Positions 4,343-36,461 of a stretch of DNA of 64,000 nucleotides are shown here, piece by piece. The notes beneath the pieces are model-generated. The model was not told the origin of the DNA. It did no database searches and saw only the letters and a program-made list of their open reading frames with translations. Each line of letters opens with the position of its first letter. Position 1 is the first letter of the stretch. The DNA is taken from contig CBDAUZ010000002.1 of the NCBI GenBank assembly GCA_965200745.1, forward strand, positions 199,165 to 263,164. Reading direction: 5' to 3'. The translations under genes were made by a program, and so were the position numbers. This DNA is from Alphaproteobacteria bacterium (GTDB lineage Bacteria > Pseudomonadota > Alphaproteobacteria > SP197).

Positions 4343-5794
4343 TTATCCCCGCGCTGTTTCACGATCAATTTCTTCCATTTTGGTATCGCGAAAGGCGTGG
4401 TACGGGAATGCATCTCCGTAGTCATGCGTATCGAGTCCGGCGAGTTCGACTTCGCGTGGAACACGCAACCAACCAAGTCCGTTGAGGATTTTCGCCAACA
4501 CATAGCAGGGAATGAATCCGAGACCCCAGAACATGATCACAGCACCCAGGAAGTTTCCGAGTGGATTGATGACCGCAACGCCATCAGCGTTGGTCCCGAA
4601 CCAGCCCGCAGCTTCACCGGCGACATTTGACGGGTAACCCCACAGCATGAACCCGGCAATGACCGTGCCGACGAATCCCGCGTAACCATGGACCGCCACA
4701 GCGCCCACTGCATCGTCGATCTTGAACTTGCGCTCGACCCAGTAGTGGAGTTTGTACGCAATCCAGACACCGATCATTGCAATGATCATGGACTCGATCG
4801 GGTGATAGAGATCGTTACCCGCCGACGCCGTAATGACACCGGCAAGTCCTCCCGAGTAACTCCAGAACGGTTGTCCGCGCGAGACGATATAACCCGCCAG
4901 GAGACCGCCTGACAGCGACATCAGGAAGTTGAAGGTGATCGCAGATAACGAGGTCGGCGTGAGATAAATGGTCGTTGCCGTGAAGAATGGTTCGCCTTCT
5001 ACACCGAGAACACCGGAAGTGTAGTCGATGATCGGGACATTGCACGCCGCGTAGAAGCCCCAGAAACCCGTGTAGATCAGGAACAGTCCGACTGTAACAA
5101 ACCACGGGTTGTTTTGCGGGATATCGCGCGGAGTGCCGTCCTTGGCAAACTTGCCCAGTCGCGGACCGAGAACAACAAGGACACCCAACGCCGAACCACC
5201 GGCGATGCCATGAACAACCGAGGATGCGTATGCATCATGGTAACCCATGAGCTGGACCATCCAGCCGTTCCAGCTCCAGCCCCATGCCGCATCAATGATC
5301 CATGTAACAGATCCAACCAGAACGACGATGATGAGGAAAGCCTGGGTCTTGATGCGCTCAATGACCGCACCAGAGACAATCGAAGCAGTTGTCCAGGAAA
5401 ACAGCAGGAACGCTGCCCAGAACACGCCGTTGATTCGTGCCCAGAACATGGTGTCAGCGGCTGTAAGGCTTCCATCCTGTACGGTGACCGAGCCACCCAT
5501 GTGTGTGCCCATGAGCTCGGACCAGGGTACAGCGAACGGTGCATCGACCAACCCGCCCATGAACGGGAAATAGGGGAACGCAAAGTAGATCCACCAGCCA
5601 AAGTAGAAAAACGTTACCGTTACGAGCGGTATCAGCATCGTGTTTTTCATCAATGTATGCTGAATGTTCTGGCGACGAGACGCGCCTACCTCGTAGACGC
5701 AGAAACCTACGTGGATCAGAAACATGATGACCACGGTGACCCAGTAGTAAAATTCCGTAAATATGACGGTCAGAGAGCCAAACTCGTCAGACAT
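4343..5794 (-). CDS. amt: Ammonium transporter (Amt/MEP family).
   Basis: About 11 predicted TM helices; Amt signature regions (YEVGASRRQN..., AVHGYAGFVGT, GLDTHD...). Start chosen at MSDEFGSL (ATG 5794, AAGGAA SD) rather than the ORF-track ATG at 5830. Confidence 0.9.
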   Translation of the reverse strand: MSDEFGSLTVIFTEFYYWVTVVIMFLIHVGFCVYEVGASRRQNIQHTLMKNTMLIPLVTVTFFYFGWWIYFAFPYFPFMGGLVDAPFAVPWSELMGTHMGGSVTVQDGSLTAADTMFWARINGVFWAAFLLFSWTTASIVSGAVIERIKTQAFLIIVVLVGSVTWIIDAAWGWSWNGWMVQLMGYHDAYASSVVHGIAGGSALGVLVVLGPRLGKFAKDGTPRDIPQNNPWFVTVGLFLIYTGFWGFYAACNVPIIDYTSGVLGVEGEPFFTATTIYLTPTSLSAITFNFLMSLSGGLLAGYIVSRGQPFWSYSGGLAGVITASAGNDLYHPIESMIIAMIGVWIAYKLHYWVERKFKIDDAVGAVAVHGYAGFVGTVIAGFMLWGYPSNVAGEAAGWFGTNADGVAVINPLGNFLGAVIMFWGLGFIPCYVLAKILNGLGWLRVPREVELAGLDTHDYGDAFPYHAFRDTKMEEIDRETARG

Positions 5795-5884
5795 CGTCCT
5801 GGTTCCTTCCGTATTTTGAAGACGCCGCAACCACCGCCAATAGCGGTCGCCCCGACATGCACATCAGTTTACGATTCAATCTCA

Positions 5885-6626: not shown

Positions 6627-7937
6627 TCACAGGATGAACCGGCTCAGATCCACATTCTTGACAAGCTCGCCGACCCGCTCCTCCACGAATGGAGAGCTGA
6701 TAAGGATTTCGTCGCCCGGCCGATCCGGCGCGGTAAAGCTGATTTCGTCGAGAAGCTTTTCCATCACCGTGTGCAGGCGACGGGCGCCAATATTCTCGAC
6801 ATTCTCGTTGATGCGGGTTGCCAGGTCCGCAAGGGTATCGATCGCATCGTCCGTGAACTCAAGAAGCACACGCTCCGTTTTCAGAAGTTCCTTGTACTGC
6901 AGAAGGAGATTGTTGACCGGCTCTGTCAGGATGCGACGGAAATCGTCACGGGTGAGTGCATTGAGTTCGACCCTGTTTGGCAACCGGCCCTGGAGTTCCG
7001 GCAGCAGATCCGCAGGTTTTGCCAGATGGAACGCACCCGAACAGATAAAGAGGATATGGTCGGTCTTGACCGGGCCATGTTTTGTCGAGACCGTCGTGCC
7101 CTCGATGAGTGGAAGAAGGTCGCGTTGAACGCCTTCGCGTGACACATCGCCAACCATTCTGTCGTTGCGTCCGGCAATCTTGTCTATTTCGTCGATGAAG
7201 ACAATGCCGTCCTGTTCCGTGGCGTCCACGGCGCTGCGAACTACGACATCCTCGTCGAGCAATTTGTCCGATTCTTCGGCCATAAGCAGGTCGTAGCTGT
7301 CGCCGACTTTCAGCTTGCGCTTCTTGGTATTTTCGCCGAACGCCTTTCCGAAAACATCGCCGAGATTGACCATGCCCATCTGGGCACCAGGCATGCCGGG
7401 CACCTCGAAGGTCGGCATGTTCGGCGAGTTTGTGTCCTGCACGTCCAGTGTCACTTCGTGATCGTCGAGCTTCTCCTGACGCAGCAGGGTTCTGTACTTG
7501 TTGCGTGTTTCGGTACTCGCGTTCTTTCCTGCAAGCGCTTCGATCACACGATTCTCGGCGGCGAGGCGCGCCTGTGCTTCAACTTCCTTGCGCTTTTCCT
7601 CTCGCTTCTGCGTGATCGCGATCTCGACGAGGTCACGGATGATTTGCTCGACATCCCGACCGACGTAGCCGACTTCGGTGTACTTGGTTGCCTCGACCTT
7701 GAGAAATGGTGCGTTGGCCAGTTTCGCAAGCCGTCGGGCTATCTCCGTCTTGCCAACACCGGTTGGCCCGATCATCAGTATGTTCTTGGGAAGAACCTCA
7801 TCCCGCAACATGTCGTCGAGCTGCTGACGACGCCACCTGTTCCGAAGCGCAATTGCAACCGCGCGTTTGGCCGCGTTCTGGCCGATGATGAATCTGTCAA
7901 GTTCCGAGACTATCTCCCGGGGTGAGAATGAGCTCAT
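6627..7937 (-). CDS. hslU: ATP-dependent protease ATPase subunit HslU.
   Basis: 436 aa. [22 protein letters not shown], Walker [16 protein letters not shown], conserved C-terminus ...VDLSRFIL. Confidence 0.95.
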
Positions 7938-8055
7938 GTGTTCCTCAGAGAGCGACGGAAAGAAACGATCCTTACAAGACGTCGTTGTCGTCTGGAGCGA
8001 TCGATTGCAATCCGGCAGGTGCGGTTTTCATTCTAGTCTGACGCCACGCGTCGTT

Positions 8056-8610
8056 CTACCTTGTATCAAGAGACTCCACGGTAACCGCGGTATTTGTGTA
8101 CACGCAGATTTCAGCAGCAATGGCCAGGCTCTTGCGCGCGACATCTTCCGCCGAAATACCGTCAGTCGATAACAGTGCCTTTGCCGCAGCAAGCGCGAAG
8201 TTTCCACCCGATCCGATTCCGATCAAGCCGTCTTCCGGTTCCAGCACATCGCCAGTTCCGCTGATGACGAGCGAAACATTGGCATCCGCGACAGCCATGA
8301 GCGCTTCAAGTCGGCGAAGGTAACGGTCGGTCCTCCAGTCCTTCGCCAGTTCCACACACGCCCGCGCGAGTTGGCCCGGATGACGCTCAAGTTTGGCCTC
8401 CAGTCGCTCGAAGAGTGTGAAGGCATCCGCTGTTGCTCCTGCGAATCCCACCAGAATCGAACCCGATCCCAGTCGGCGCACCTTGACGGCATTTGACTTG
8501 ATCACTGACTGACCCATGGTCACCTGGCCATCACCGGCAATGACAACCTTCCCGTCCTTGCGGACGGAAAGAATGGTCGTGCCGTGCCATACGGACTCCT
8601 TCGTGTGCAT
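8056..8610 (-). CDS. hslV: ATP-dependent protease subunit HslV, with an alphaproteobacterial-type N-terminal propeptide.
   Basis: [23 protein letters not shown]hr-protease N-terminus preceded by [18 protein letters not shown] present. Lies downstream of hslU on the same strand. Confidence 0.95.
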
Positions 8611-9349
8611 TTACTGCAATCTCCTACCAACCGGTATTCAGAACAGGATCATCAATTCGATCTGTCTCGCAAAGCCGCGATCATTCGAAAAAATGAACGA
8701 TATTGTTCAAGCGAAACAACGGCAGACACACAAGCGATACCGCGATCTTGCGCTGCATGAAGATCGGGCGATCAGTCTGTCCACCGCTGCAAACTGACCT
8801 TGTCATGCGATCCCGGCAGATTCGTATATTGCGTTCTACCGGACATTCACAGGTCATGAGAACCAGAAACCGCGCCTTTGGAACCCGCTGTCTCGTTTCG
8901 ATTCCGGGACCGGTTTCACCCCTTTACTGTATCGTCGTTCAGTCATGTTTCCAGACTCAGAATATGTAGTTGATCGGCAACAATCTGCAATACCTGACGG
9001 TTTCGGCCATGAGAAATCGACGAACACGAACAGATTGGTGCGTCATTTTCGTTTGTGGGATCGCCGTAGAAGGCCCGTCGGCCAGGTTGACATGATCCGC
9101 ACACACCGCCCTGGTACCGCGGAACCCTGTCGACAGCGACGAGAAGGCAGAGATAGACGGTGAGACCAACGCCTAATTGATCGCCGTACGCGATGGCAAC
9201 CAGGCACGGGACCGCCGTGAACTGACCGTTGCACAACGGTCACATAATCGGGCGATTTACGGGCAAAGCCATATCAACGCTGCCTCCATCAACACGAGGC
9301 CTTCAGGAAACCGGTTCAACGACGGTACGCGTGGTATTGCGCCTCGGAT

Positions 9350-9652
9350 GTGATGACAAGCGCGCAGGAGGTGGAATTTCATCGGGACTTTCCGGACCAG
9401 CACGGAGTAACACACACCGCGCTCGATCCGGAAACCACGTCGGGTTACCCGGCCGGACAGCGCCGCGCTGCAGATTTTTGGAGAGAGGGGTATCGTGGAC
9501 TGGTCTACCCGTCCGTACGCCATCCCGGTGGCCGGTGTTTTGTCGCCTTCGACCCCGGTATCATCCAGAATGTTCGTCGGCGAGCAAGTTGGACGCTCGT
9601 CTGGCATGGTTCGCCAGAATTCACAATCGAGGCGTTGAGTCACCTTTCATGA
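9350..9652 (+). pseudogene. Fragment (C-terminal half only) of a RES-domain toxin (RES-Xre type TA family); apparently truncated or frameshifted.
   Basis: ...YPAGQRRAADFWREGYRGLVYPSVRHPGGRCFVAFDPGII matches the conserved C-terminal core of RES-domain proteins (G-x-G-L-x-Y/VPSA-x-PGG-x-N-x-V-x-F). The same frame is closed by a stop at 9245, so the N-terminal R-E-S motif region is missing. Confidence 0.35.
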
Positions 9653-10218
9653 TCTTGATGCGGTACTTTTATATATCGTCATAAGATAATGAAAATGCGA
9701 TATGTTTTCCTCCATGAATATCTTCACCTTCCTCTACATCATCAGCCGCGAGTCTTGCGGCGGTTTCGACTGGGCGTCTGTGGAAATCTCCTGAACGAAG
9801 TCGAAGACGCTCGCAGGTGGTCGGGCTTCCTCATCATCGTAACAGCGAAAGAGAAGGTTCAATTCGTCCGTGCTGGGCAGAGCTTCGGCCCGGTCTCCTT
9901 GCTGCGCTCGGATGGTTTCCCCGGCTCGTACAAATCGCCTATATGAAGATCGATAAGATTGCCAAAGGTCAGGAGACCAGCATGTTGATCAGTGCCGGTC
10001 CCTGATCCACAGGCGTTTCCGCCTGACGTACACAGCGATGGGAGTCGTCGTGGCGAAAAATTGTTTCGCTCGAACAGCGGCCAATTCATCGGGTCTCGAC
10101 TCGGTGGGTACCTGAAGAAAGCTCAGACGTCGGTCACCATATTCATGTGTGTACAAAGAGACGCCGTTGAGGGGCAGGTTCAAGGATTTCGGGCGTAGCA
10201 GTCGTCGTCGCCAACAGT

Positions 10219-11274
10219 TTGAAAACGCACACAATGAAAATCAGTCATGACGCCAGATTGTCCACAGCCCCGATGATGGACTGCACAGATACCTATGACC
10301 GGTCGTTTCTGCGCTGCGTCACACGACACACCTTGCTCTATTCAGAGATGATCGTTGCAGACGCAATCCTCCACGGTCCACGGAAACGATTGCTTGAAAT
10401 CGACGAAACGGAACATCCGGTTGCATTGCAGGTCGGCGGTTCGGAACCACACAAACTCGCCGATGTATCGCGTATTGCAGAAGACGCCGGTTTTGATGAA
10501 ATCAATCTCAACGTCGGCTGTCCAAGTTCCAGGGTCGGCGCCGGTCGATTTGGCGTATGTCTGATGGCCTGGCCCGACATTGTCGCGCGTTGCGTCGAGG
10601 CCATGCAGCACTCGGCGACCATTCCCGTCACCGTGAAGTGTCGTATCGGAATTGACGACATGGATGAAAACGAAACCTTGCCGGCGTTCGTGGAGGAGGT
10701 TGCCAATGCGGGGTGCAGAACATTTGTCGTCCATGCACGCAAGGCATGGTTGCACGGTCTGTCACCGAAACAGAACCGTGAAATACCGCCCTTGCGTTAC
10801 GGTGTTGTCTACGAAACAAAACGCCGTTTTCCGCATCTCGCGATCGTCATCAACGGCGGAATCCGGAACCTGGACGAAGCGAGAGGACACCTCGCTCATG
10901 TCGATGGTGCGATGATTGGCCGGGCCGCGTATCACACACCATACACGCTTGCCGACGCCGACAGGGTCATGTTCGGTGCCGAAACACCCCGGCCCAAACG
11001 CAAGGACATTGTTGAAGCCTGGTATCCGTATCTCGAACGAAAACTGGCCGCAGGCGTGCCGCTGAAGCGCATGACACGTCACATCCTGGGGCTCTACCAC
11101 GGAGAGCCCGGCGCCCGGAGCTGGCGGAGAACGCTTGTGGAAGAGGCCGCGAAATCCGGTGCAGGAATCGAGGTTATCGAAAACGCATTGCGTTTTGTCG
11201 AACAATCAGACGCTTGTGGATCACGATCAATGTCACACAGACACGAGACTCATGTCGATACAAGCGACGAATAG
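10219..11274 (+). CDS. dusA: tRNA-dihydrouridine(20/20a) synthase DusA.
   Basis: 351 aa. RLSTAPMMDCTDTYDRSFLRCVTRHTLLYSEMIV... and a TIM-barrel flavoenzyme core. Start is ambiguous: ATG 10219 or ATG 10234, and neither has a strong SD. Confidence 0.9.
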   Translation: MKTHTMKISHDARLSTAPMMDCTDTYDRSFLRCVTRHTLLYSEMIVADAILHGPRKRLLEIDETEHPVALQVGGSEPHKLADVSRIAEDAGFDEINLNVGCPSSRVGAGRFGVCLMAWPDIVARCVEAMQHSATIPVTVKCRIGIDDMDENETLPAFVEEVANAGCRTFVVHARKAWLHGLSPKQNREIPPLRYGVVYETKRRFPHLAIVINGGIRNLDEARGHLAHVDGAMIGRAAYHTPYTLADADRVMFGAETPRPKRKDIVEAWYPYLERKLAAGVPLKRMTRHILGLYHGEPGARSWRRTLVEEAAKSGAGIEVIENALRFVEQSDACGSRSMSHRHETHVDTSDE

Positions 11275-11352: not shown

Positions 11353-11742
11353 TCACTCCGGTGCATGGCAACAGGCCTGAATCTTGTTGCCATCGGGATC
11401 ACGGGCGTATGCGCCGTAGTAATGTTCGTGATAGTGGGAACGCAGTCCGGGTCCACCCTCATCCGTACCGCCAGCTTCGATACAGGCCGCATGAAACCTG
11501 TCAACGGCATCGCGTGTCTGTGCCAGAAAGGCGACGTGTGTACCGTTTCCGGCTGTCGCGGGCGCGCGATTATAGGGCGTGACAACAAAGAGTTGTGCCG
11601 GCTGCCCTTGCGGCGAAAACCCGGCGAGCGGGATACGCGGTTCGTTTAGCGTGCAGCTGATTCCCAGCGGCTCCAGGACCCTGGTGTAGAACTTTACAGA
11701 TTTGTCGAAAGCGTTCGTGCCGAGCGTCATGTGACTGAACAT
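11353..11742 (-). CDS. VOC (glyoxalase/bleomycin-resistance/dioxygenase) family protein.
   Basis: 129 aa. Glyoxalase-like fold hallmarks (HVAF..., ...YGAYARDPDGNKIQ). GGGGAGA SD. Sits 18 nt downstream of the kinase-aminotransferase fusion gene on the same strand. Confidence 0.8.
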   Translation of the reverse strand: MFSHMTLGTNAFDKSVKFYTRVLEPLGISCTLNEPRIPLAGFSPQGQPAQLFVVTPYNRAPATAGNGTHVAFLAQTRDAVDRFHAACIEAGGTDEGGPGLRSHYHEHYYGAYARDPDGNKIQACCHAPE

Positions 11743-11759
11743 CGTGGCAATCTCCCCAC

Positions 11760-14144
11760 TCAGAGTTCCGAAACCGCCTGGTTCATTATGGCAACAAACA
11801 TGTCCGCATTTGCCTTGTCGAACACCAGTGGCGGCCGAATTTTGAAAACATTGCCATGCGGTCCCTCACGGCCAACAAGTACGCCAAGTTCCCGCATGCG
11901 ATTCTGCACCCTGTGCGTAATCTCCGGCGCCGGGGTCCTCGCACGCCGGTCGTGTACGAATTCGACGCCGGCGATCAGGCCGCACCCCCTGACATCGCCG
12001 ATGCAATCGTGCTGGTCCAGGAGCTTTTTCATCTCGTTTTTCAGATAGTCGCCCGTTTCCCGTGCATTCGACTGCAGTTCCTCGCGCTCGATGACATCGA
12101 GAACCGCGAGGCCTGCGGCACAGGCAACAGGATTGCCCCCGAATGTACTGAACAGGCCGTCCGTGGCCTCGTTGAATTCCGACAGGATCTCGCTTCGGGT
12201 CACGACAACACCGAGTGGATAACCACCGCCAACCGGTTTTCCCAATGTCACAAAGTCAGGTGTGACACCGTAGTACTCAAATCCCCACATGGTGCGCCCC
12301 GGACGGGCGAATCCGAATTGAACCTCGTCAGCCACATTCATTCCGCCGGCACGTTTGACCCGTGCAAAAACTTCTCCGAGATAGGTTGGCGGTACATCAG
12401 GGATCCCGTTCGAACAGAACGACGTATCGATCATGAAGAGCGCCGTTCCCATGCCCGTCGATTCCAGTTCGGCAATTGCCTGGTCCGCAAAGGATGCGTA
12501 CTTGCCCGCCAGATCCGGCTCATCTTCACGGTAGGGACCGCGATACGGATCCGGCGCAACAAGGGCACGTACATGTGGTGCCAGATTGGAGGAGTGTTCG
12601 GGCGAAAGATGTGCGATGGCATCCGTGATGCCGTGATATGCGTCCTTGACAATGAGGCAACCACGATTGCCCGTCAGCACATTGGCCATCCTGAAGGCCA
12701 TGTCATTCGCCTCGCTGCCGGAATTGACAAAAACACAGCGGTCGAGTTCTGCCGGCATGGTGGCGAGAAGCCTCTCCGCATAGGCAGCAAGGTTGTCGTA
12801 GAGGTAGCGCGTGTTTGTACCGAGCGCCGCAGTCTGGCGTGCTATCGCATTGACTACGTGCGGGTGGCAATGGCCGACACTGGGAACGTTGTTGTAGGCG
12901 TCCAGAAACGCCCGGCCATTGGCATCGTAGAGCCACGCTCCCCTGCCCCGTTCCACGTGTATCGGTTTCTCATAGAACAGGCTGAGGTGCTTGCCGACAA
13001 CACGGTGACGTCGTCCGAGTACATGTTCGGTGTCATCTGCTTCGGGTGTCGTGGTCGTACCGATCCTGCAGCGGGTCGGCATGCGCAGCACTTCGCGAAA
13101 CCGCTGTGTTGCCCGTTCAGGGCCGATTGATTCGAGTCGCTCCAGATCTTTGGTGATCTGTTCGAGATACAGTTCGTCGTGGGACCTTCCCGCGCGGCCC
13201 ACATGGAATCTCGACAATGTGATCACACCGGAAATCGCCAGGCGGGCAACAATGCAATCGTAGAGGACGTCGACCTCTTCCTCCTCGAGCGGAATCACCG
13301 AGTCGAATCCGACCGCAACATTTTCAAACATGCTCAGCGGATCATCAAACTCGTGGCCGTAATCGTCGCAAGCCAGTGCGAGTTCAACGGCGAGCGGACC
13401 ATGGATCATGTCGCCAAAGTCGATAATGCTGACCGGAGTCTCCGGATCGTTTTCGTCGACCAGAACATTCGAGCTGTTGGCGTCATTGTGAATGACCTGG
13501 GACCGCATGGTTTCAAGACGCGGCAAGGTTCCTTCAATGAACCGGTCCAGCACGGTCTCGATGCATTGGCGCAATGTGCGGTTCTCGAACAGACCGGTAT
13601 GAACACGCAGCGTCGGCGCCTGACGAATATCCCAGACAAGGGTATGCATGGACGATGGGTGGACAAATCCGCGCAGAGCACGATCCGTTCGCGCAACCAG
13701 CGCCCCCACACCTCTCAGTGTACGCCTCGTGTATTCAGTTTCGCCGACCGGTGTACCAGGCAACCACGAAAGGACCCTGACAATACTTGTGCGACCATCG
13801 CGAAGGGTCACGTTGCGTGACAATTCACCCGAGGTTGTCGGGACCACTTCAGGTATCTGCAGCGCACCATCTGCCTTGGCGATATGCAGCAATGCCCGCG
13901 TCTGGAAGTCGATGACGCCGGGGTCTTCTTCGGGATGGAAGTACTTCAGGATCCAGCGCCCGTTCTCACCCGTGATAGCGAAGTTGGTATCCCTGTCGGA
14001 CTTGCAGGGGGTAAATTCACCCTCCAGTCCAAAAATCCTGCTTGCGAGTTGCATCGCCTCTGCAACACTCACCTCAGGCCGGTTCGAGACGAGATACTTG
14101 ATGTTCTCGGCAAATTCACTCAATGCAACTCTCCCCCGCAGCAA
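11760..14144 (-). CDS. Bifunctional fusion. N-terminal aminoglycoside-phosphotransferase-fold kinase (hydroxylysine/ethanolamine-kinase-like, AGPHD1-like) joined to a C-terminal class-III aminotransferase-fold domain (AGXT2L/ethanolamine-phosphate phospho-lyase-like).
   Basis: 794 aa. N-terminal half has APH/ChoK motifs (VIHNDANSSNVLVD, IIDFGD). C-terminal half has class-III AT motifs (DEVQFGFARPG, TLGKPVGGG, LIGDVRGCGL). First codon is TTG. Confidence 0.85.
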   Translation of the reverse strand: MLRGRVALSEFAENIKYLVSNRPEVSVAEAMQLASRIFGLEGEFTPCKSDRDTNFAITGENGRWILKYFHPEEDPGVIDFQTRALLHIAKADGALQIPEVVPTTSGELSRNVTLRDGRTSIVRVLSWLPGTPVGETEYTRRTLRGVGALVARTDRALRGFVHPSSMHTLVWDIRQAPTLRVHTGLFENRTLRQCIETVLDRFIEGTLPRLETMRSQVIHNDANSSNVLVDENDPETPVSIIDFGDMIHGPLAVELALACDDYGHEFDDPLSMFENVAVGFDSVIPLEEEEVDVLYDCIVARLAISGVITLSRFHVGRAGRSHDELYLEQITKDLERLESIGPERATQRFREVLRMPTRCRIGTTTTPEADDTEHVLGRRHRVVGKHLSLFYEKPIHVERGRGAWLYDANGRAFLDAYNNVPSVGHCHPHVVNAIARQTAALGTNTRYLYDNLAAYAERLLATMPAELDRCVFVNSGSEANDMAFRMANVLTGNRGCLIVKDAYHGITDAIAHLSPEHSSNLAPHVRALVAPDPYRGPYREDEPDLAGKYASFADQAIAELESTGMGTALFMIDTSFCSNGIPDVPPTYLGEVFARVKRAGGMNVADEVQFGFARPGRTMWGFEYYGVTPDFVTLGKPVGGGYPLGVVVTRSEILSEFNEATDGLFSTFGGNPVACAAGLAVLDVIEREELQSNARETGDYLKNEMKKLLDQHDCIGDVRGCGLIAGVEFVHDRRARTPAPEITHRVQNRMRELGVLVGREGPHGNVFKIRPPLVFDKANADMFVAIMNQAVSEL

Positions 14145-14492
14145 TTCCGGCTGTCGTCAACACACGAACATACATGCTTGTCCGGCTCCTTGCGTAAACT
14201 ATCGAAATGATAGCAGACGCAAGAGACCATCCCGGCGTTTGACAGGATTCAAACGGGTGTCATCGAACGCGCCGAATTGCGAAACAAATCACGGTGATCG
14301 ACGTACGGCCGCGCCAACGCTTGTCAACGTCTGAACGCACGGTACAACAACAACTCTTGTATCGGTTGAACTGCTGGAGTTGCCGACATGTCGCGACGGG
14401 AACGGTCTGCTGCGGGACGGCGACGCGCCGATGCGTCCAGAAATCGCAGGCCACAATTGCCATGGGCGACCTTTCGCAATCCCTATCCGCCG

Positions 14493-15926
14493 ATGGAGAT
14501 TGCGAGTGCCGACGAGATAGAGAGCATTCATGACGCGTCGTTGACCGTACTCGAGGAGGTCGGCGTCAACATTCTGCTCGATGAGGCGCGCGACATTCTC
14601 CAGGCCGCCGGTGTTCCGACGACCAGGGGCGAAACCCGCGTTCATATGGACCGCGGATTCATCGAAAGCATGATGAAGGAGACACCTGATATCTGGACAC
14701 TCCACGCCCGAAATCCTGAACGGAACCGGGTATTCGGAGACAACCATGTCAATTTCTTTCCGGTCGCCGGCAATCCGAACGTCGCCGACCTTGAAGGTGG
14801 ACGCCGTTCCGGAACCCTCAAGGACTACCAGGACCTGCTGCGACTGGCTCAGGTCGTCAATGCGGTTCATGGATGCACGCCGATGCTTGAGCCGCTCGAT
14901 GTGCACCCGAACACGCGCTATCTCGATATCGTTGGCGAACAGCTGTTGCTTTCCGACAAGATAGCCTTCGGCTACGCAATCGGGCGACGCAAGATCCTCG
15001 ACGCAATTGAAATGGTGCGAATCGCCAGGGGAATTTCACATGAGGAACTGCAGACGCAGCCCAGCATCTGGACTGTTGTGAACTGCAACTCGCCGCTTCA
15101 GCTCGACATTCCGATGTTGCTTGGCATGATCGAGATGTCGCGGCGAAACCAGGTTATCGTCGTCACGCCATTCACCCTTGCCGGCGCCATGGCACCCGTC
15201 TCGCTGTCCGGCGCCCTGATCCAGCAAAACGCGGAGGCGATCTCCGCGTTGGCCTTCTGTCAGGCTGTCAAGCCGGGGACACCGGTAGTCTACGGCGGGT
15301 TCACGAGCAATGTTGACATGCGTTCCGGCGCACCGGCATTCGGCACGCCCGAATACGTCAAGGCCGTCCTGGTCGGTGGACAACTCGCGCGATTCTACAA
15401 ACTGCCGTACCGTTCGTCAGGTGTCAGCGCCTCGAACTGGCCCGATGCCCAGGCCACATATGAAACCTCCATGTCGCTCTGGGCGACAGTGCTCAGTCAT
15501 ACGAACATGGTCATGCACAGTTTCGGCTGGATGGAGGGCGGACTGCACGCGTCATTCGAGAAGTTCATCATCGACCTCGAAATGGTGCAGACACTCATGA
15601 AGGCCATGGAGCCCATCGATTTCAGTCAACCGGAATCTGATCTCGACGCCATTCGTGAAGTCGGACCGGGCGGACACTATTTCGGAGCGGGACAAACCCT
15701 GGAACTTTATGAAACCGCATTCTATCAACCGATCCTTTCGGACTGGCGAAACTGGCAAACCTGGAAGGACGATGGTGCGGTCGATACGACCCGGCGTGCA
15801 CAACAGGTCTACCGCGATCTTCTGAGGGAATACGAAACGCCGTTCATGGAACCGGCAATCCGGGAGGAGTTGACCGCTTTCATCGATCGACGAAAGCGTG
15901 AGGGAGGCGCAACAGCGGAAGACTGA
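14493..15926 (+). CDS. MttB-superfamily (trimethylamine-methyltransferase-like) protein, non-pyrrolysine type. Likely a quaternary-amine:corrinoid methyltransferase.
   Basis: About 478 aa from MEIASADEIESIHDASLTVLEEVGV, a typical MttB-family N-terminus. TIM-barrel MttB-like core with no in-frame amber codon. The ORF track begins earlier at 14388 in the same frame. Confidence 0.85.
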   Translation: MEIASADEIESIHDASLTVLEEVGVNILLDEARDILQAAGVPTTRGETRVHMDRGFIESMMKETPDIWTLHARNPERNRVFGDNHVNFFPVAGNPNVADLEGGRRSGTLKDYQDLLRLAQVVNAVHGCTPMLEPLDVHPNTRYLDIVGEQLLLSDKIAFGYAIGRRKILDAIEMVRIARGISHEELQTQPSIWTVVNCNSPLQLDIPMLLGMIEMSRRNQVIVVTPFTLAGAMAPVSLSGALIQQNAEAISALAFCQAVKPGTPVVYGGFTSNVDMRSGAPAFGTPEYVKAVLVGGQLARFYKLPYRSSGVSASNWPDAQATYETSMSLWATVLSHTNMVMHSFGWMEGGLHASFEKFIIDLEMVQTLMKAMEPIDFSQPESDLDAIREVGPGGHYFGAGQTLELYETAFYQPILSDWRNWQTWKDDGAVDTTRRAQQVYRDLLREYETPFMEPAIREELTAFIDRRKREGGATAED

Positions 15927-17429: not shown

Positions 17430-18194
17430 TCAAACAGTCGCACGAACACCAGCATGGCTTCCGATCCAGGCCAGGACTTCCTCGATCGAATGCGCTTTCT
17501 GCCCGCTCGGGGGTTGTGGTCGCCTGATCATGATGACCGGAATCCCGCAGGTGCGTGCAGCAATGATCTTTGCTTCGGTCGCCGCTCCGCCACTGGCCTT
17601 TGTCACGAGCGCATCAACTTGAAGATCGCGAAAAAGTGCCTGTTCATCTTCCAGTCGAAACGGCCCGCGCGCCCGCAGGATCTCGATAGCGCCGATCGAT
17701 TCAATACTGACAGGCAATTCAATGACACGCGCTGTCAACCGCATGCCCTGACACTTCGAAAATGCCTCGAGACTGCGATTCCCGGTTGTCAGCAGAACCG
17801 ATGTCGGTTTCATGGAACACAGTGTTTCTGCAGCTTCCGCATAGGTATCGACCTCGATCCAGTTATCGTCTTCAACCCTTTTCCAGTGCGGTCGCACAAA
17901 CTTGATCCGCGGTGTGCCCGTGCGCGCGGCAGCAGTCTCGGCATGCCGCGCCATGATTGCGGCAAACGGATGTGTGGCGTCCACAAGCAAGCCCGTGCCC
18001 GAGTTCCGGATGTACTGCACAAGTCCATCAATACCGCCAAACACGCCACGGCGGACTTCGCCGCAAATGTTGCACGAACCGGCCGTGATACCGGCCAGTG
18101 ACGTCGTGCAGTGAACATCGGGAAACCGTTCAGCGACGGCATTCGAAATTGCCGTTCCTTCCTGTGTACCACCCAGGACCAGAAGTCTTTTCAT
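17430..18194 (-). CDS. cobK: Precorrin-6A reductase / cobalt-precorrin-6A reductase.
   Basis: MKRLLVLGGTQEG...GGFGGIDGL...LLVDATHPFAA...RP.W match the CobK/CbiJ hallmark pattern. Confidence 0.85.
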   Translation of the reverse strand: MKRLLVLGGTQEGTAISNAVAERFPDVHCTTSLAGITAGSCNICGEVRRGVFGGIDGLVQYIRNSGTGLLVDATHPFAAIMARHAETAAARTGTPRIKFVRPHWKRVEDDNWIEVDTYAEAAETLCSMKPTSVLLTTGNRSLEAFSKCQGMRLTARVIELPVSIESIGAIEILRARGPFRLEDEQALFRDLQVDALVTKASGGAATEAKIIAARTCGIPVIMIRRPQPPSGQKAHSIEEVLAWIGSHAGVRATV

Positions 18195-19282
18195 GGACCG
18201 GCCACACCGATTATGTCACCGGCGCGGTTGATGACGACCACATCTATTTCGGTCGATCCCGACAGCGTTGCGATGGCAGTTTCACGGGCGCCGGCTGCAA
18301 CGCGTTCACCCAACGGAACCATCGCTGCAGACGCAATCGCGAGTGCAGCACTTGCGCTGGTTTCATGCCTTATACGACTTTCAACTTCCCTGGACGCACC
18401 GGCATCCCGCGCAAAGGTCGCGAGCCGCGACTGATCGACCTGACTGCGGGACGAATGAAGATCCAGCGCACCCTGGGCAAGTTTTGTCATCTTGCCGATG
18501 CCTCCGGCGATCGTCACGCGTTCAACGGGATGACGCCGCAGATACTTGAGCATACCTCCGACGAAGTCGCCCATATCGATCAGTGCACCGTCACTCAGAT
18601 CGTGATACGCACGGATAACCTGTTCTGAAGTCCGTCCCGTTGAACCGGCAATGTGAGAAAGACCCTCCGCCCGGGCAACATCAATGCCCTGGTGAATTGA
18701 TGCAATCCATGCCGAACAGGAATACGGAACAACAATTCCCGTTGTGCCCAGAATCGACAGTCCACCGACGATACCCAACCGTGGATTCCATGTCTGTTGC
18801 GCCAGTTGCTCGCCATCCACCACGCCGATCGTGATCTGGAGGTCGTGCCGATGCGCGAACCGGTCGGCCAGTTCCTCGATTGCGCTTTCAATCATCCGGC
18901 GCGGACCGGGATTGATGGCCGGCTCACCCGGTTCGACCGGCAAGCCCTGTTTTGTGACGATTCCGACGCCTTCGCCGGCCCTGAATTGAACACCGGTCCC
19001 GTCATCTCCGTAGCTGATCTGGACCACAACTTCCGCGCCATTCGTCACGTCCGGATCGTCGCCTGCATCCTTGACGACTGATGCCATGGCGCACTGATGA
19101 CGGAGTTCCGATCTATGAACCTGAAACACAGGTTCCTGTCCGCGTGGCAGGGTCACGGTAACAGATCGGGGAATGTTGCCCGTCGCCAGTCCCTCATATG
19201 CGGCGGCGGCCGCCGCCATCGCACAGGCGCCTGTAGTCCAGCCCTTTCGTAAGTTCGTGGTGGCTGTCATGCGACCCACCAA
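18191..19282 (-). CDS. cbiD: Cobalt-precorrin-5B (C1)-methyltransferase CbiD. Fills the CobF role in Rhodobacter-type aerobic pathways.
   Basis: LRKGWTTGACAMAAAAAA is the CbiD signature N-terminus; 363 aa. A 4-nt overlap with cobK indicates a cbiD-cobK operon. Confidence 0.85.
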   Translation of the reverse strand: MVGRMTATTNLRKGWTTGACAMAAAAAAYEGLATGNIPRSVTVTLPRGQEPVFQVHRSELRHQCAMASVVKDAGDDPDVTNGAEVVVQISYGDDGTGVQFRAGEGVGIVTKQGLPVEPGEPAINPGPRRMIESAIEELADRFAHRHDLQITIGVVDGEQLAQQTWNPRLGIVGGLSILGTTGIVVPYSCSAWIASIHQGIDVARAEGLSHIAGSTGRTSEQVIRAYHDLSDGALIDMGDFVGGMLKYLRRHPVERVTIAGGIGKMTKLAQGALDLHSSRSQVDQSRLATFARDAGASREVESRIRHETSASAALAIASAAMVPLGERVAAGARETAIATLSGSTEIDVVVINRAGDIIGVAGP

Positions 19283-19365
19283 TCAGCAACGGAGACGACG
19301 TCGGATTGCACAACGCGCATTCTTCAACGCCATGCTGATCGGGCGAGAGTGGCCATCTGATGATG

Positions 19366-19411
19366 CGACGTCACAGGACGCCCCCGACCGACGTCACAGG
19401 ACGCCCCCGAC
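19366..19411. repeat. Perfect tandem duplication of a 23-bp unit (CGACGTCACAGGACGCCCCCGAC x2) in the cbiD/cobA divergent intergenic region.
   Basis: Read directly from the sequence: 19366-19388 equals 19389-19411. Each unit contains the palindrome GACGTC. Confidence 0.9.
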
Positions 19412-19544
19412 GTTTTGAACAATCTGCAATGTGCATGATACTTGACGTTCTCCGGGTCGTCGTATGTGTATTCGGCCACTGTACGCTATCGTGCAGAAGG
19501 AAATACAACCTTCCGGTCATGTTACATCAGTATCAGGCAGTTGC

Positions 19545-20375
19545 ATGTCCACGAACACGTTTCCACACATGCCCGAGTTCAGGCCCGGCTGGGTCTGGCT
19601 GGCAGGAGCCGGCCCCGGCGATCCCGGTCTCCTCACTCTGCTGACGCTACATGCGTTGCGTCACGCAGACTTCGTTGTGTACGACGCGCTTGTCGACCAG
19701 TGCGTCCTTGAGCTTGCCCGTCCGGTAGCCGAAAGAATTTATGCGGGAAAGCGCGGTGGCAAACCGTCGCCTGTTCAACCTGATATCTCGCGCAAGCTCG
19801 TTGAACTCGCGCGATCCCGGAAGCGCGTGCTTCGTCTGAAAGGTGGCGACCCGTTCGTTTTCGGACGCGGAGCTGAAGAGTGTCGTGCACTTGCGGAAGC
19901 CAACATTCCCTTTCGAGTCGTTCCGGGTGTGACGGCCGGGATAGGCGGACTCGCGTATGCAGGGATTGCCGCAACGGATCGGCGAACCAATCATGCGATC
20001 ACATTCGTCACAGGTCGCCTGGCAGGAGGCGCAACACCGGACGACTTGAACTGGGCAACGCTCGCTGGTGAGGGACACGCACTGGTGATCTATATGGCGC
20101 TCTCGAAACTGGCGCAGATCACACGAACACTGCTTGACGGCGGTCTGTCACCCGAAACGCCGGTTGCCATTGTCAGCCGCGCGACCACGCGTGACCAGAA
20201 GGTCATTCATACAAACCTGCATCGCGCCGCAGAGGCAGCCCGCCTCGCCGACTCTCCCGCGATTGTCGCCATTGGTGCGTTTGCACATGATCAACCTGCA
20301 CTCAACTGGTTTGACACGGTCGTGGCTACGCTGCCGGCTGATGCAAACCGCATGGAACACGGTGGGGATTCGTGA
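19545..20375 (+). CDS. cobA: Uroporphyrinogen-III C-methyltransferase (SUMT).
   Basis: VWLAGAGPGDPGLLTL, LKGGDPFVFGRGAEE, VVPGVTAG are the SUMT/CysG methyltransferase motifs. Start chosen at ATG 19545; alternatives are 19464 or 19569. Confidence 0.85.
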   Translation: MSTNTFPHMPEFRPGWVWLAGAGPGDPGLLTLLTLHALRHADFVVYDALVDQCVLELARPVAERIYAGKRGGKPSPVQPDISRKLVELARSRKRVLRLKGGDPFVFGRGAEECRALAEANIPFRVVPGVTAGIGGLAYAGIAATDRRTNHAITFVTGRLAGGATPDDLNWATLAGEGHALVIYMALSKLAQITRTLLDGGLSPETPVAIVSRATTRDQKVIHTNLHRAAEAARLADSPAIVAIGAFAHDQPALNWFDTVVATLPADANRMEHGGDS

Positions 20376-21685
20376 CCCGCGGAATCATCATCACGGCCCC
20401 TGCAAGCGGCTCGGGGAAGAGTGTCGTGACCATGGCCCTCTTGCGGGCACTGCTCCATCGCAAGCAGAGGGTTGCAGCATTCAAGACCGGCCCCGACTAC
20501 ATCGACGGTGCGTTTCATGCCGTCGCCGGCTGCCTGCGTTGTCGTTCGCTTGATCCCTGGTGCATGTCGAGATCGCGCCTGCATCATGAGTATGCGCGGT
20601 TGTCGGATGGCGCGGATATCGTTGTCGGTGAAGGAACCATGGGGTTGTTCGACAGCAGCCTGGACGGCACCGGGTCGACTGCTGATCTTGCCACAGTTCT
20701 CGGGTTGCCCTGTGTGCTTGTCGTGAACACCCGGGGTCTGGGCGCCTCCGTTGCCGCACTTGTCGAGGGTTTTCATCATCATCGAAAGCAGGTGTCGATC
20801 GCCGGCGTCATACTCAACCAGGTATCAAGCGCAAGGCATCTGAAAATTCTCGAACTGGCCATGAATGGTGTCGCACCGGTGTTCGGTCATCTCTCGAATT
20901 TGCCGGAATTTCGCCTTCCTCATCGACACCTGGGACTGGTGCAGGCCATTGAACACGAGGATCTCGAAGTCTGGCTTGAGCACGCGGCGACCAGGGTTGC
21001 CGAGACGCTCGATCTGGATGCGCTCATCAGCGTGGCCAGGGAAGCCGGCACGACAGTCGGGAATGCCGTCATGGAACCCGTATTGCCTCTCGGCCAGCGC
21101 ATATCCATTGCGCACGATTCAGCCTTCGCATTCTGTTATCCCACAATCGTCGACGACTGGCGGGACGCCGGCGCAGAAATCACCTGGTTTTCCCCGCTTG
21201 CCGATGAAGGTCCGCATCCCGAAGCCGATGCGGTTTATCTACCCGGAGGTTATCCGGAACTCCATGCAGCAACACTGTCGTCGAACCGGCGATTTCACGA
21301 CAGTCTCAGAGAGGCGGCATCACAGGGTGCGTTCGTCTACGGCGAGTGCGGTGGATACATGGCGCTTGGCGACACTCTCATTGATGCAGACGGGAACGGT
21401 CACCCGATGGCCGGGCTCCTGCCTATCTGCACATCGTTTGCAAAACCGCGTCGGCATCTGGGTTATCGACAACTGAAACTCGAAACAACATGTCAACTCG
21501 GCACCTCCGGTACGGCGTTGCGTGGCCATGAGTTTCATTACGCCACACTGGAAACACCCAGCGGACCGCATCTGTTTTCGTGCAAGGCGGCAGACGGTTC
21601 CGATCTTCCGGATGCCGGCACCGTCGTTGGCAACGTCGCAGGCTCGTTTTGCCATGTTGTCGATCGGTATGCGCCTGAATGCTGA
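20372..21685 (+). CDS. cobB: Cobyrinic acid a,c-diamide synthase (CobB/CbiA).
   Basis: 437 aa. N-terminal ATPase domain (APASGSGKSVVTMALLRAL) and C-terminal glutamine-amidotransferase domain (YGECGGYMALG). Start overlaps the cobA stop. Confidence 0.9.
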   Translation: MTRGIIITAPASGSGKSVVTMALLRALLHRKQRVAAFKTGPDYIDGAFHAVAGCLRCRSLDPWCMSRSRLHHEYARLSDGADIVVGEGTMGLFDSSLDGTGSTADLATVLGLPCVLVVNTRGLGASVAALVEGFHHHRKQVSIAGVILNQVSSARHLKILELAMNGVAPVFGHLSNLPEFRLPHRHLGLVQAIEHEDLEVWLEHAATRVAETLDLDALISVAREAGTTVGNAVMEPVLPLGQRISIAHDSAFAFCYPTIVDDWRDAGAEITWFSPLADEGPHPEADAVYLPGGYPELHAATLSSNRRFHDSLREAASQGAFVYGECGGYMALGDTLIDADGNGHPMAGLLPICTSFAKPRRHLGYRQLKLETTCQLGTSGTALRGHEFHYATLETPSGPHLFSCKAADGSDLPDAGTVVGNVAGSFCHVVDRYAPEC

Positions 21686-21872: not shown

Positions 21873-23216
21873 GTGCAGGCAGCATCTGGCGCCTTTGACG
21901 GTTATCGCAGGACCATCAACGGTGAACACGACGAGTTTCTGGTTCGCGTCGGTCCCGGTACACCTGCTGGTGAGTATCTGCGAAGATTCTGGCACCCCGT
22001 TGCAATCAGTTCCGAGCTTGGTGACCACCCACAGGGTACGAGAATCCTCGGTGAGGATCTCGTCATCTTTCGCGATGGATCAGGCCAGGTCGGGCTGGTC
22101 CACCGCCGGTGCCCGCATCGCAGGGCCTCGCTGGAGTTCGGAATCTGCGAACGCCGTGGCATACGCTGCTGCTACCATGGATGGCTCTTTGATGTTGACG
22201 GTACCATTCTGGAAATACCGGGACAGGCCGATGGGGTCGTTTCCCGGGTATCAAGGAACACGCGTCTCGGTGCGTATCGCACGCTGGAGTACAAGGGCCT
22301 CGTATTCGCCTATCTCGGTCCACCGGAACTGGCTCCGGAGTTTCCCGTATACGATACGCTCGTCATGGACGGGCACGACATGGTTCCCTACCAGGCGCCT
22401 TTCGCCTGTAACTGGTTGCAGGTGCAGGATGCAATTCTCGATCCGCTGCATACGGCGTTTCTTCACTCGCGCGTCAGCCGGGAACAGTTTTCCAAGGGGT
22501 TTGGTGAAATTGGCGAGATGAAATTCTATGAACGCGGCAGAGGGTTTCTGGGGACTGCAACGCGTCGTGTCGGCCAGAATGTCTGGGTACGCGTGAATGA
22601 GCTTGTGCTGCCAAATTTCACGCAGGCGGGCGCAGCATTTGCGGTGGACGGCACACACCCGTGCTACTTCGGGAGATCAAGTTTCGCGCGGTGGGTTGTA
22701 CCGATTGATGACCACAACACGAACTGTCTTGCCTGGGCGATCTTTGGTGAACGCGGTGACCCGCACGCGTACAACACACCCGAAGGCCCGGAACTGATCG
22801 AACAGGGAGAACTGTTCGATCGACCCTGGCAGCAGCGCCAGCGCTTTCCGGGGGATCGTGAAGCGTGCGAGGGCATGGGCACGATCACTGAACACAGCAA
22901 GGAAAACCTTGTGCCAAGCGACAAGGGCATCCAGATGTACCGACGCCATCTGCGTCGTGAGATCCGGGCGTTGGCCGATGGCCGGGAACCGCCGAAAGTG
23001 ACGGATGCCGGTCTGAACCCGGTCCCCACCTATGGCGGCGATACGGTTCTTCAGGTTCCGCGCAGGGAAAACGATCGATCGATACTTGCGCGATACGGCA
23101 GCGCTGTGATGGACGCGCAATTCAGGTCCGAAGAGTTGCCACTGGATGAGCGGGATATGCAGATCATCGCGGATCTCAAACTGATCGAACAACGCGGGTA
23201 CCAGGCATGCGCGTAA
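21873..23216 (+). CDS. Rieske [2Fe-2S] non-heme-iron oxygenase, alpha (catalytic) subunit. No beta-subunit gene is adjacent.
   Basis: Rieske motif CPHRRASL...CCYHGW. Mononuclear iron site NWLQVQDAILDPLHTAFLH (D-x2-H-x4-H). N-terminal YLRRFWHPVAISSEL is typical of the GbcA/CntA/Stc2-like alpha3-type oxygenases. GTG start. Confidence 0.85.
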   Translation: MQAASGAFDGYRRTINGEHDEFLVRVGPGTPAGEYLRRFWHPVAISSELGDHPQGTRILGEDLVIFRDGSGQVGLVHRRCPHRRASLEFGICERRGIRCCYHGWLFDVDGTILEIPGQADGVVSRVSRNTRLGAYRTLEYKGLVFAYLGPPELAPEFPVYDTLVMDGHDMVPYQAPFACNWLQVQDAILDPLHTAFLHSRVSREQFSKGFGEIGEMKFYERGRGFLGTATRRVGQNVWVRVNELVLPNFTQAGAAFAVDGTHPCYFGRSSFARWVVPIDDHNTNCLAWAIFGERGDPHAYNTPEGPELIEQGELFDRPWQQRQRFPGDREACEGMGTITEHSKENLVPSDKGIQMYRRHLRREIRALADGREPPKVTDAGLNPVPTYGGDTVLQVPRRENDRSILARYGSAVMDAQFRSEELPLDERDMQIIADLKLIEQRGYQACA

Positions 23217-24223: not shown

Positions 24224-24244
24224 ACCTCATTCCAGGAGAATGTC

Positions 24245-26688: not shown

Positions 26689-26878
26689 AGTTTTTAAGGG
26701 ATCACACAGGGCGATTCCGCGAGACCCTTGTGCATCGTTGACGGTCATCCGCCGATGCAGGGACATTTCTGGCTTTCTCGTGCAAAACAGTTGACCGTCT
26801 GCCGTTCGCCCCTGAATAACGAACTGCGGTTGTCGCGGAGCCTCGCAGACTTGGGCGAACTTGATGCGAACGCGTAGC

Positions 26879-36451: not shown

Positions 36452-36461
36452 GCCTGTTCTC

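Follow-up and report, generated by a model that had tools for sequence, protein, structure and literature searches.

The 64,000-nucleotide stretch of DNA analysed here (the window; contig CBDAUZ010000002.1 of the alphaproteobacterial assembly GCA_965200745.1, positions 199,165 to 263,164) carries on its minus strand an uninterrupted open reading frame (ORF) at 11760 to 14144, which encodes 794 amino acids when counted from its most upstream TTG. The original prediction, made from the sequence letters, had described this frame as an APH-fold small-molecule kinase joined to a class-III aminotransferase-fold domain, and Pfam searches confirmed that both domains lie in the one ORF. APH (PF01636) matched residues 44-269 with an E value of 3.5e-23 (83 bits, against a cut-off of 23.2), and Aminotran_3 (PF00202) matched residues 394-791 with an E value of 2.1e-73, both matches scoring far beyond chance. 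These two ranges use the numbering of the 794-residue frame; all other residue numbers refer to a 787-residue form of the protein, and the codon positions were verified against the sequence. The gene, its parts and the gene that follows it are listed below.

11760 to 14123, minus strand: gene of the predicted bifunctional protein, 787 amino acids, with a TTG start codon at 14123-14121 and a TGA stop codon at 11762-11760 (from the ORF, Pfam, an identical database protein, the N-termini of homologues and the codon map).
14129 to 14137, minus strand: Shine-Dalgarno-like GGGGGAGAG, 5 nt upstream of the TTG at 14123, as read from the sequence.
13086 to 14123, minus strand: APH-fold kinase domain, residues 1-346 (from Pfam, invariant residues, the AlphaFold2 (AF2) model and solved relatives).
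13944 to 13946, minus strand: codon of K60, the predicted ATP-binding lysine.
13467 to 13490, minus strand: codons of H212, D214 and N219 in the H-x-D-x4-N catalytic loop.
13410 to 13421, minus strand: codons of D235-F-G-D238, a D-F-G-like Mg2+ motif.
13032 to 13085, minus strand: inter-domain linker of about 18 residues (347-364), from the full-length AF2 model; the alignment with 5g4i starts at about residue 356.
11763 to 13031, minus strand: pyridoxal phosphate (PLP)-dependent domain of the phospho-lyase type, residues 365-787 (from Pfam, PDB matches, signature columns and fold).
12237 to 12239, minus strand: codon of the PLP-site K629, the predicted Schiff-base lysine, with D599 and Q602 completing the PLP site.
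12885 to 12893, minus strand: codons of N411-N412-V413, lyase-signature residues.
11841 to 11843, minus strand: codon of K761, lyase-signature residue.
11835 to 11837, minus strand: codon of R763, lyase-signature residue.
Within 11763 to 13031, minus strand: R439, P630 and N758, lyase-signature residues.
11743 to 11759, minus strand: spacer of 17 nt between the stop codon of the fusion and the start of the next gene, with a Shine-Dalgarno-like GGGGAG at 11752-11757 and no terminator or promoter motif found.
11353 to 11742, minus strand: gene of a VOC/glyoxalase-fold protein of 129 amino acids (PF00903, E 1.3e-11).

The gene is best placed at 11760 to 14123, with TTG still as the predicted start codon. 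This start is favoured because the identical database protein (P0001) has 787 residues, because the N-termini of homologues align with a start seven codons downstream of the first TTG of the 794-residue frame, because GGGGGAGAG is suitably spaced from it, and because the next in-frame ATG downstream would cost the near-invariant K9, L11 and P16 in an alignment of 35 relatives. A TTG start had indeed been predicted, but its coordinate was 21 nt off and the protein has 787 rather than 794 residues. Since its length agrees with that of 120 listed homologues (771-843 residues), the fusion protein appears to be intact. In the full-length AF2 model, the last helix of the kinase ends at residue 346 and the first helix of the lyase starts at residue 365; a fold search against the PDB found no solved structure that spans both halves (query-normalised template-modelling (TM) score at most 0.50).

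We then considered which kind of enzyme the PLP half resembles. Among 35 full-length relatives D599, Q602 and K629 are invariant, and these residues, together with T660, are kept as across the whole fold; K629 and D599 align with their counterparts in 5g4i, 6tor and DGD. The best PDB sequence match of this half is A1RDF1 from Arthrobacter aurescens TC1 (5g4i/5g4j; 369 bits to 5g4i), a PLP-dependent O-phosphoethanolamine phospho-lyase, followed by the human ethanolamine-phosphate phospho-lyase ETNPPL (6tor, 358 bits) and then by dialkylglycine decarboxylase (DGD) with 212 bits. The full-length AF2 model (pLDDT 87) reached a TM score of 0.91 at 42% identity to both 5g4i and 6tor, while DGD, the next-best fold match, had a score of 0.85 at 30% identity. 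Over the PLP half, identity was 41-42% to the characterised lyases and 33-34% to AGXT2 and DGD. AGXT2-type transaminases proper, however, come fairly close to 5g4i as well, with an identity of about 36% (PMC6750192), and for this reason an explicit column test was built. Its lyase clade comprised 48 sequences (our protein, 34 fused homologues, 6 split forms, 5 solo forms, 5g4i and 6tor), and its references were DGD, one ornithine transaminase (OAT) that passes TIGR01885, three omega-transaminases that pass PRK07480 and four proteins named AGXT2 by their source. The lyase-specific columns, which were derived in this analysis, are positions where the two solved lyases go with 44-48 of the 48 clade members and the references depart from them:

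Column 411-413: N-N-V in the lyase clade; S/A-G/A-x in the references, all with two extra residues after the motif (S-G-I in AGXT2).
Column 439: R in the lyase clade; V or A in AGXT2, E or T in DGD and the omega-transaminases, and also R in OAT.
Column 630, next after the PLP lysine K629: P in the lyase clade; G, T or A in the references (G in AGXT2).
Column 758: N in the lyase clade; Q in AGXT2 and G, H or D in the other references.
Column 761: K in the lyase clade; R in AGXT2, DGD and OAT, and V or G in the omega-transaminases.
Column 763: R or K in the lyase clade; A in the references including AGXT2, with S or M also seen in the omega-transaminases.

N411, N412, V413, R439, P630 and K761 were common to all 48 clade sequences, and N758 and R/K763 to most of them. 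Our protein holds the lyase-type residue at every distinguishing column, with R439 as a partial exception in discriminating power because OAT also carries Arg there. A1RDF1 shares with the fusion the PLP lysine, the D-E-V-Q motif, N-N-V, R439, K-P, N758 and K-x-R, but is a stand-alone protein of about 446 residues without a kinase; the same signature is found in ETNPPL, whose identity to the lyase half is 42%. AGXT2 (alanine-glyoxylate / beta-aminoisobutyrate-pyruvate aminotransferase 2), in contrast, has the same fold and is the closest true transaminase (33% identity), but departs from the fusion at each of the columns listed. In a neighbour-joining tree without bootstrap, for which DGD, OAT and the omega-transaminases served as transaminase references and AGXT2 was left out, the family and the solved lyases formed one clade apart from these references; within it the short fusions made up their own subclade, and 5g4i and 6tor lay nearer the split and solo forms.

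These comparisons bear directly on whether the C-terminal half could be a genuine aminotransferase fused to an unrelated kinase. The database sources do name such proteins "aminotransferase class III-fold PLP-dependent enzyme", and the fold is common to many transaminases. However, the carboxylate-binding Arg of DGD, OAT and AGXT2 is a Lys (K761) in the fusion, the S-G-x loop is replaced by N-N-V with a deletion of two residues, and K-G/T/A is replaced by K-P; K761, N-N-V and K-P all match two enzymes whose structures were deposited as phospho-lyases. The fusion moreover scores below every NCBIfam transaminase cut-off. We consider the aminotransferase reading very improbable and conclude from the residue pattern that the active site of the PLP half is of the lyase type, as the original prediction had proposed, with the PLP lysine conserved.

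The kinase half was examined in the same way. K60, H212, D214, N219, D235, G237 and D238 are invariant in the 35 full-length relatives (46-60% identity), and they stay unchanged, H212 almost always, in a more divergent set of 27 kinase halves to which split and long forms also belong. The ATP-binding lysine, the H-x-D-x4-N loop and the D-F-G-like Mg2+ site form the machinery of the APH/protein-kinase-like fold, so that none of the expected catalytic residues is missing. A single-sequence search of the PDB with the kinase half gave no match, while a profile of the 27 kinase sequences had its best match in 6ef6 (E 6.5e-18) and also matched the amicoumacin kinase 6sui and the type-II homoserine kinase 2ppq; in the profile alignment, the Brenner and DFG-like motifs of the kinase half align with those of 6ef6. 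The AF2 model of residues 1-352 (pLDDT 89.8, pTM 0.88) found its best fold matches in 2ppq, AmiN, the N-acetylhexosamine kinase NahK and 6ef6, at TM scores of 0.67-0.76. The conserved residues and the model argue that the N-terminal domain is an intact small-molecule hydroxyl kinase. Taken together, sequence, fold and signature columns support the core of the original prediction, an APH-fold small-molecule kinase fused to a phospho-lyase of the AGXT2L type.

We further studied how widely this architecture occurs. A search of a collection of 5.8 billion proteins gave at least 120 fused homologues of 771-843 residues with both Pfam domains, at 47-60% identity to our protein. Sources of the listed homologues include Rhodospirillales, Rhodobacteraceae, Chloroflexota, Deltaproteobacteria and others, and their database names are either "aminotransferase class III-fold PLP-dependent enzyme" or absent. 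In a scan of one genome per species there were at least 600 matching stretches, with 597 confirmed relatives, and the best 80 of these at least 600 loci span Proteobacteria, Actinomycetota, Chloroflexota, Bacteroidota, Acidobacteriota, Planctomycetota and more. Such fusions were hence known before: the protein in the window adds a further member to a large bacterial family that spans many phyla and is already recognised. Architecture classes were assigned for 82 loci, and neighbours were counted on 83 loci by an analysis of all ORFs. The classes were as follows:

Short fusion like that of the window: 64 of 82 loci, one of them (L020) split by an in-frame stop.
Long fusion of about 1000 residues: 8 of 82 loci.
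Kinase and lyase encoded by two neighbouring genes in different frames: 4 of 82 loci, for example L075 from Pseudomonas nitroreducens, with an overlap of 4 nt.
Reverse gene order: 1 of 82 loci.
Lyase-type gene alone: 5 of 82 loci.

The long form occurs in L059, L064, L072-L074 and L076-L078. It corresponds to the best NCBIfam matches of our fusion, PRK06148 and PRK06149, which describe fusions of APH, Peptidase_M23 and class-III domains of about 1000 residues. Positions 5-340 of PRK06148 match the kinase half and positions 581-1009 the lyase half, while 341-580 are unmatched, and the scores of our protein stay below both cut-offs (758.5 against 1128 bits, and 622.3 against 973). The fusion thus lacks the middle segment of about 240 residues of PRK06148-type proteins, which in L064 (10001-13018) holds a Peptidase_M23 domain, of the LytM type, at residues 436-534, between kinase and lyase. 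Stand-alone lyase-type genes in Woeseia-like and other Gammaproteobacteria adjoin a gene for a predicted protein of about 820 residues with an HExxH-type motif, recognised by eye, at these positions:

11293 to 13728 in L068.
11289 to 13751 in L070.
6552 to 9002 in L080.

For ETNPPL and PHYKPL, a chemistry of phosphorylation followed by elimination is established. In bacteria, the fusion of such modules, or their adjacency, reportedly served Veiga-da-Cunha and colleagues in 2012 as a clue to hydroxylysine kinase and two ammoniophospholyases. ETNPPL and PHYKPL are documented as the eliminating lyases of this subgroup (PMC8154272), and a 2025 review cites the 2012 paper as an example of a gene fusion that revealed enzyme function (PMC12138971). 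In vertebrates, ETNPPL (AGXT2L1) and PHYKPL (AGXT2L2), with ethanolamine kinase and HYKK (AGPHD1), follow the same phosphorylate-then-eliminate logic that we propose for the fusion, but there kinase and lyase are separate proteins. That kinase and lyase modules work as a pair also in the bacterial family is shown by the genomes in which they are encoded by separate genes side by side. The mycobacterial 6ef6, the (S)-1-amino-2-propanol kinase of the Mycobacterium smegmatis RMM/AAUM microcompartment, is likewise an amino-alcohol kinase encoded beside a class-III-fold enzyme; it differs from the fusion in that the proteins are separate and associated with a microcompartment, the identity is about 16%, and no shell genes occur at the fusion locus.

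We therefore propose, with a probability of roughly 0.8, that the fusion is a two-step catabolic enzyme which would convert an amino alcohol into an aldehyde, ammonia and phosphate. In the first step, as the fold and the conserved residues suggest, the APH-fold domain would phosphorylate the hydroxyl group of a vicinal (1,2-) amino alcohol with ATP, with K60 positioning the ATP, D214 acting as the catalytic base and D235 binding Mg2+. In the second step, by homology to A1RDF1 and human ETNPPL, the PLP domain would take the O-phospho-amino alcohol as an external aldimine that displaces K629, the proton beside the amine would be abstracted and phosphate eliminated, and hydrolysis of the resulting enamine or imine would give ammonia and an aldehyde (or ketone). 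K761, which takes the place of the carboxylate-binding Arg, would hold the phosphate leaving group together with R763 and R439. The predicted net reaction is amino alcohol + ATP + H2O to aldehyde + NH3 + phosphate + ADP. Oxidation of the aldehyde would fall to a dehydrogenase whose gene lies elsewhere; in a few loci, an SDR or aldehyde dehydrogenase gene adjoins the fusion directly.

Several points weigh against this proposal. The phosphate-binding role of K761, R763 and R439 is proposed from position and charge only, identity to the characterised lyases is only 41-42%, and the literature searched gave no experimental study of this protein or of any bacterial fusion of its type. The fused subclade stands apart from both characterised enzymes, and at ten positions that are fixed in it both phosphoethanolamine lyases have other residues, so that the substrate may differ. 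The kinase half is structurally nearer the homoserine, aminopropanol and amicoumacin kinases than the choline/ethanolamine kinases, which says little about its substrate, and the neighbourhood gives no consistent clue to the role of the fusion.

Ethanolamine, 1-amino-2-propanol, 5-hydroxylysine or another vicinal amino alcohol may be the substrate; compounds as small as the first two appear most likely, and 5-hydroxylysine is possible. Taken singly, ethanolamine is a tentative candidate with the odds against it. The fusion would then combine an ethanolamine kinase and an ETNPPL equivalent on one polypeptide, giving acetaldehyde by a route independent of B12, and both solved lyase relatives, A1RDF1 and human ETNPPL, indeed act on O-phosphoethanolamine and share the lyase signature in full. 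However, the fused family branches apart from these two enzymes with its ten fixed differences, and the kinase half falls outside the choline/ethanolamine-kinase type, since such kinases reach TM scores of only 0.45-0.55 against the kinase model, compared with 0.67-0.73 for the homoserine and aminopropanol kinases. Nor does the window carry an ethanolamine transporter or eut gene nearby. A route from 1-amino-2-propanol (derived from aminoacetone or threonine) to propionaldehyde, parallel to the mycobacterial RMM/AAUM pair of a kinase and a class-III "aminotransferase", is somewhat less probable still. It is favoured by 6ef6, whose PDB title is "microcompartment-associated aminopropanol kinase", as the best solved match of the kinase profile; by SDR genes, the class of aminopropanol dehydrogenase, which in three loci of actinobacteria (L028, L031 and L053) border directly on the fusion; and by the RMM loci, where the degradation of amino alcohols draws on a phosphotransferase, an SDR and an aminotransferase together (PMC4207490). 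On the other side, 6ef6 ranks only ninth by fold, with 16% identity in the structural alignment with the kinase model, SDRs are abundant everywhere and none lies beside the gene in this window, and microcompartment shell genes are absent. For 5-hydroxy-L-lysine, where the protein would be a fused HYKK and PHYKPL that yields 2-aminoadipate semialdehyde, the reported 2012 precedent on the vertebrate enzymes can be cited; free hydroxylysine is derived from collagen and is unlikely to be a major nutrient for a free-living alphaproteobacterium, and no lysine-catabolism genes lie nearby in the window, which leaves this substrate rather unlikely.

Another idea, to which we give a lower chance than to any of these three substrates, is that the short fused clade may use neither phosphoethanolamine nor phosphohydroxylysine and could instead close a route, not described so far, in which an agmatinase-family ureohydrolase frees a vicinal amino alcohol from a hydroxylated guanidino compound and the fusion turns it into an aldehyde. 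Possible guanidino routes would be gamma-hydroxyarginine to 4-hydroxyornithine, 4-guanidino-3-hydroxybutyrate to 4-amino-3-hydroxybutyrate, and guanidinoethanol to ethanolamine. In 8 of the 83 loci, which come from about five separate lineages, a gene of the agmatinase family stands no more than 10 kb from the fusion, against a chance expectation of about one locus in 83 by a rough hand estimate. It is adjacent and divergent in L001 (8913-9872, minus strand) and L005 (8916-9986, minus strand), and stands at about 7296-8816 (minus strand) in L004; in addition to the 8 loci, one follows the homologue P0046 directly downstream on the same strand. These neighbours pass TIGR01230. No agmatinase-family gene was found anywhere in the 64-kb window. 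The co-occurrence in the other loci weakly suggests a guanidino-derived amino alcohol.

The original prediction had also tied the fusion to its surroundings in the window, which are arranged in this order:

796 to 1587: ECH.
1587 to 2762: ACAD.
Between ACAD and Amt: class-IV aminotransferase.
4343 to 5830: Amt ammonium transporter.
6627 to 7937: HslU.
8056 to 8610: HslV.
10219 to 11274: DusA, convergent with the pair of VOC gene and fusion.
14388 to 15926, plus strand: MttB-family gene, divergent from the fusion and 264 bp away.
Beyond MttB: Nth and a cyclase, then CobK, CbiD, a tetrapyrrole methylase and CobB; the region 17430 to 21685 is given with the cobalamin cluster.

From the MttB gene and the caiD/caiA-like ECH and ACAD genes, a salvage of choline-, ethanolamine- or carnitine-type headgroups had been suggested, with the VOC protein handling the aldehyde or 2-oxo product. 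The divergent MttB gene, also found within 10 kb of the fusion in L001 and L005, the VOC gene that is probably co-transcribed with the fusion, and the cobalamin-synthesis genes 3-7 kb away, which suit a corrinoid-dependent MttB, would fit such a pathway. Yet MttB lies within 10 kb in only 4 of the 83 loci, L001 and L005 included, and the VOC gene follows in 5 of 83, all of them close relatives with shared synteny. ECH and ACAD are 9-13 kb from the fusion, beyond Amt, HslU, HslV and DusA, and for this distance and these intervening genes they are regarded as units separate from it. An unbiased clustering of neighbours gave no family in more than 11 loci, and a Pfam census of the upstream ORFs gave 121 families, each confined to at most 3 of about 70 loci, downstream neighbours being assessed by clustering and jackhmmer counts. 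We consider the headgroup-salvage pathway improbable, and the suggestion drawn from the MttB, ECH and ACAD genes is not supported. With no broadly conserved neighbour, the fusion behaves as a self-sufficient module.

The VOC gene was predicted to be co-transcribed with the fusion, and this part of the prediction remains plausible, because only 17 nt with GGGGAG and no terminator separate the two genes. Its proposed role was not borne out in the same way. Apart from the window, only its four closest relatives (56-60% identity) have the VOC gene immediately after the fusion; they have the convergent Dus gene in common with it too and, in L001, the one examined for it, also the HslVU synteny. The nearest PDB entries of the VOC protein, 4z04 and 4qb5, are both uncharacterised, so that its solved relatives have no assigned function, and against the glyoxalase I model NF050074 it scored 17.3 bits, below the cut-off of 165. 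All five orthologues (window, L001, L002, L004 and L005) carry the C-terminal motif DGNK[IL]Q, in which a Gln takes the place of the usual C-terminal Glu metal ligand of glyoxalase I. They also share H4, H79, an HYHEHYYGAY motif and the C-terminal DGNK[IL]QACCH, with two Cys after the Gln. The orthologues form an uncharacterised VOC subfamily, and a link to the chemistry of the fusion is not supported.

Other features of the window were noted along the way. A scan for promoters and terminators found no promoter motifs and fewer terminator-like sites than in shuffled controls, and scans for Rfam families and tRNA genes had no matches. In the divergent region common to the fusion and MttB, 66-100 nt upstream of the fusion start, an imperfect palindrome, CTTGCGTAAACTATC-N5-GATAGCAGACGCAAG, lies at 14189-14223 with 12 of 15 positions complementary; it is marginal, as 16 of 300 shuffles reached the same score. 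The MttB gene at 14388-15926 encodes a full-length, non-pyrrolysine methyltransferase (PF06253, E 3e-186) that scores below the trimethylamine-specific TIGR02369 cut-off, and its place 3-7 kb from the cobalamin cluster suits a corrinoid-dependent demethylation of some quaternary amine. Between HslV and DusA, the gap of about 1.6 kb at 8610-10219 has no long ORF, Rfam match or tRNA and looks inserted, as in L001 Dus is followed directly by HslV and HslU. It includes an ORF of 100 amino acids at 9350-9652 (plus strand) that matches only positions 90-157 of the 157-position RES profile PF08808 (E 6e-12) and looks like the decayed remnant of a RES/Xre toxin-antitoxin system. A second class-III-fold paralogue of 451 residues, at 35132-36487 on the minus strand, is 31% identical to the lyase half, scores below every NCBIfam cut-off (best PRK08360) and has Glu at the position of K761. 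The region 21873-29538 encodes a Rieske oxygenase, a D-2-hydroxyacid dehydrogenase, a glutamine-synthetase-like protein (possibly a gamma-glutamylation enzyme), an alpha/beta hydrolase, an S-Me-THD/DUF917 protein and hydantoinase A, and looks like a catabolic cluster for an amine or N-heterocycle, unrelated to the fusion.

The importance of the fusion finding is modest, for it concerns a large and under-annotated family and overturns nothing known. The name "aminotransferase class III-fold PLP-dependent enzyme" stands in databases on this protein and on thousands of relatives, while the evidence favours bifunctional kinase/phospho-lyase enzymes that, as read here, would spend one ATP to split an amino alcohol into ammonia and an aldehyde. 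A single biochemical study of a member would annotate a very large family, and renaming the family would improve the metabolic reconstructions of many soil and marine bacteria.

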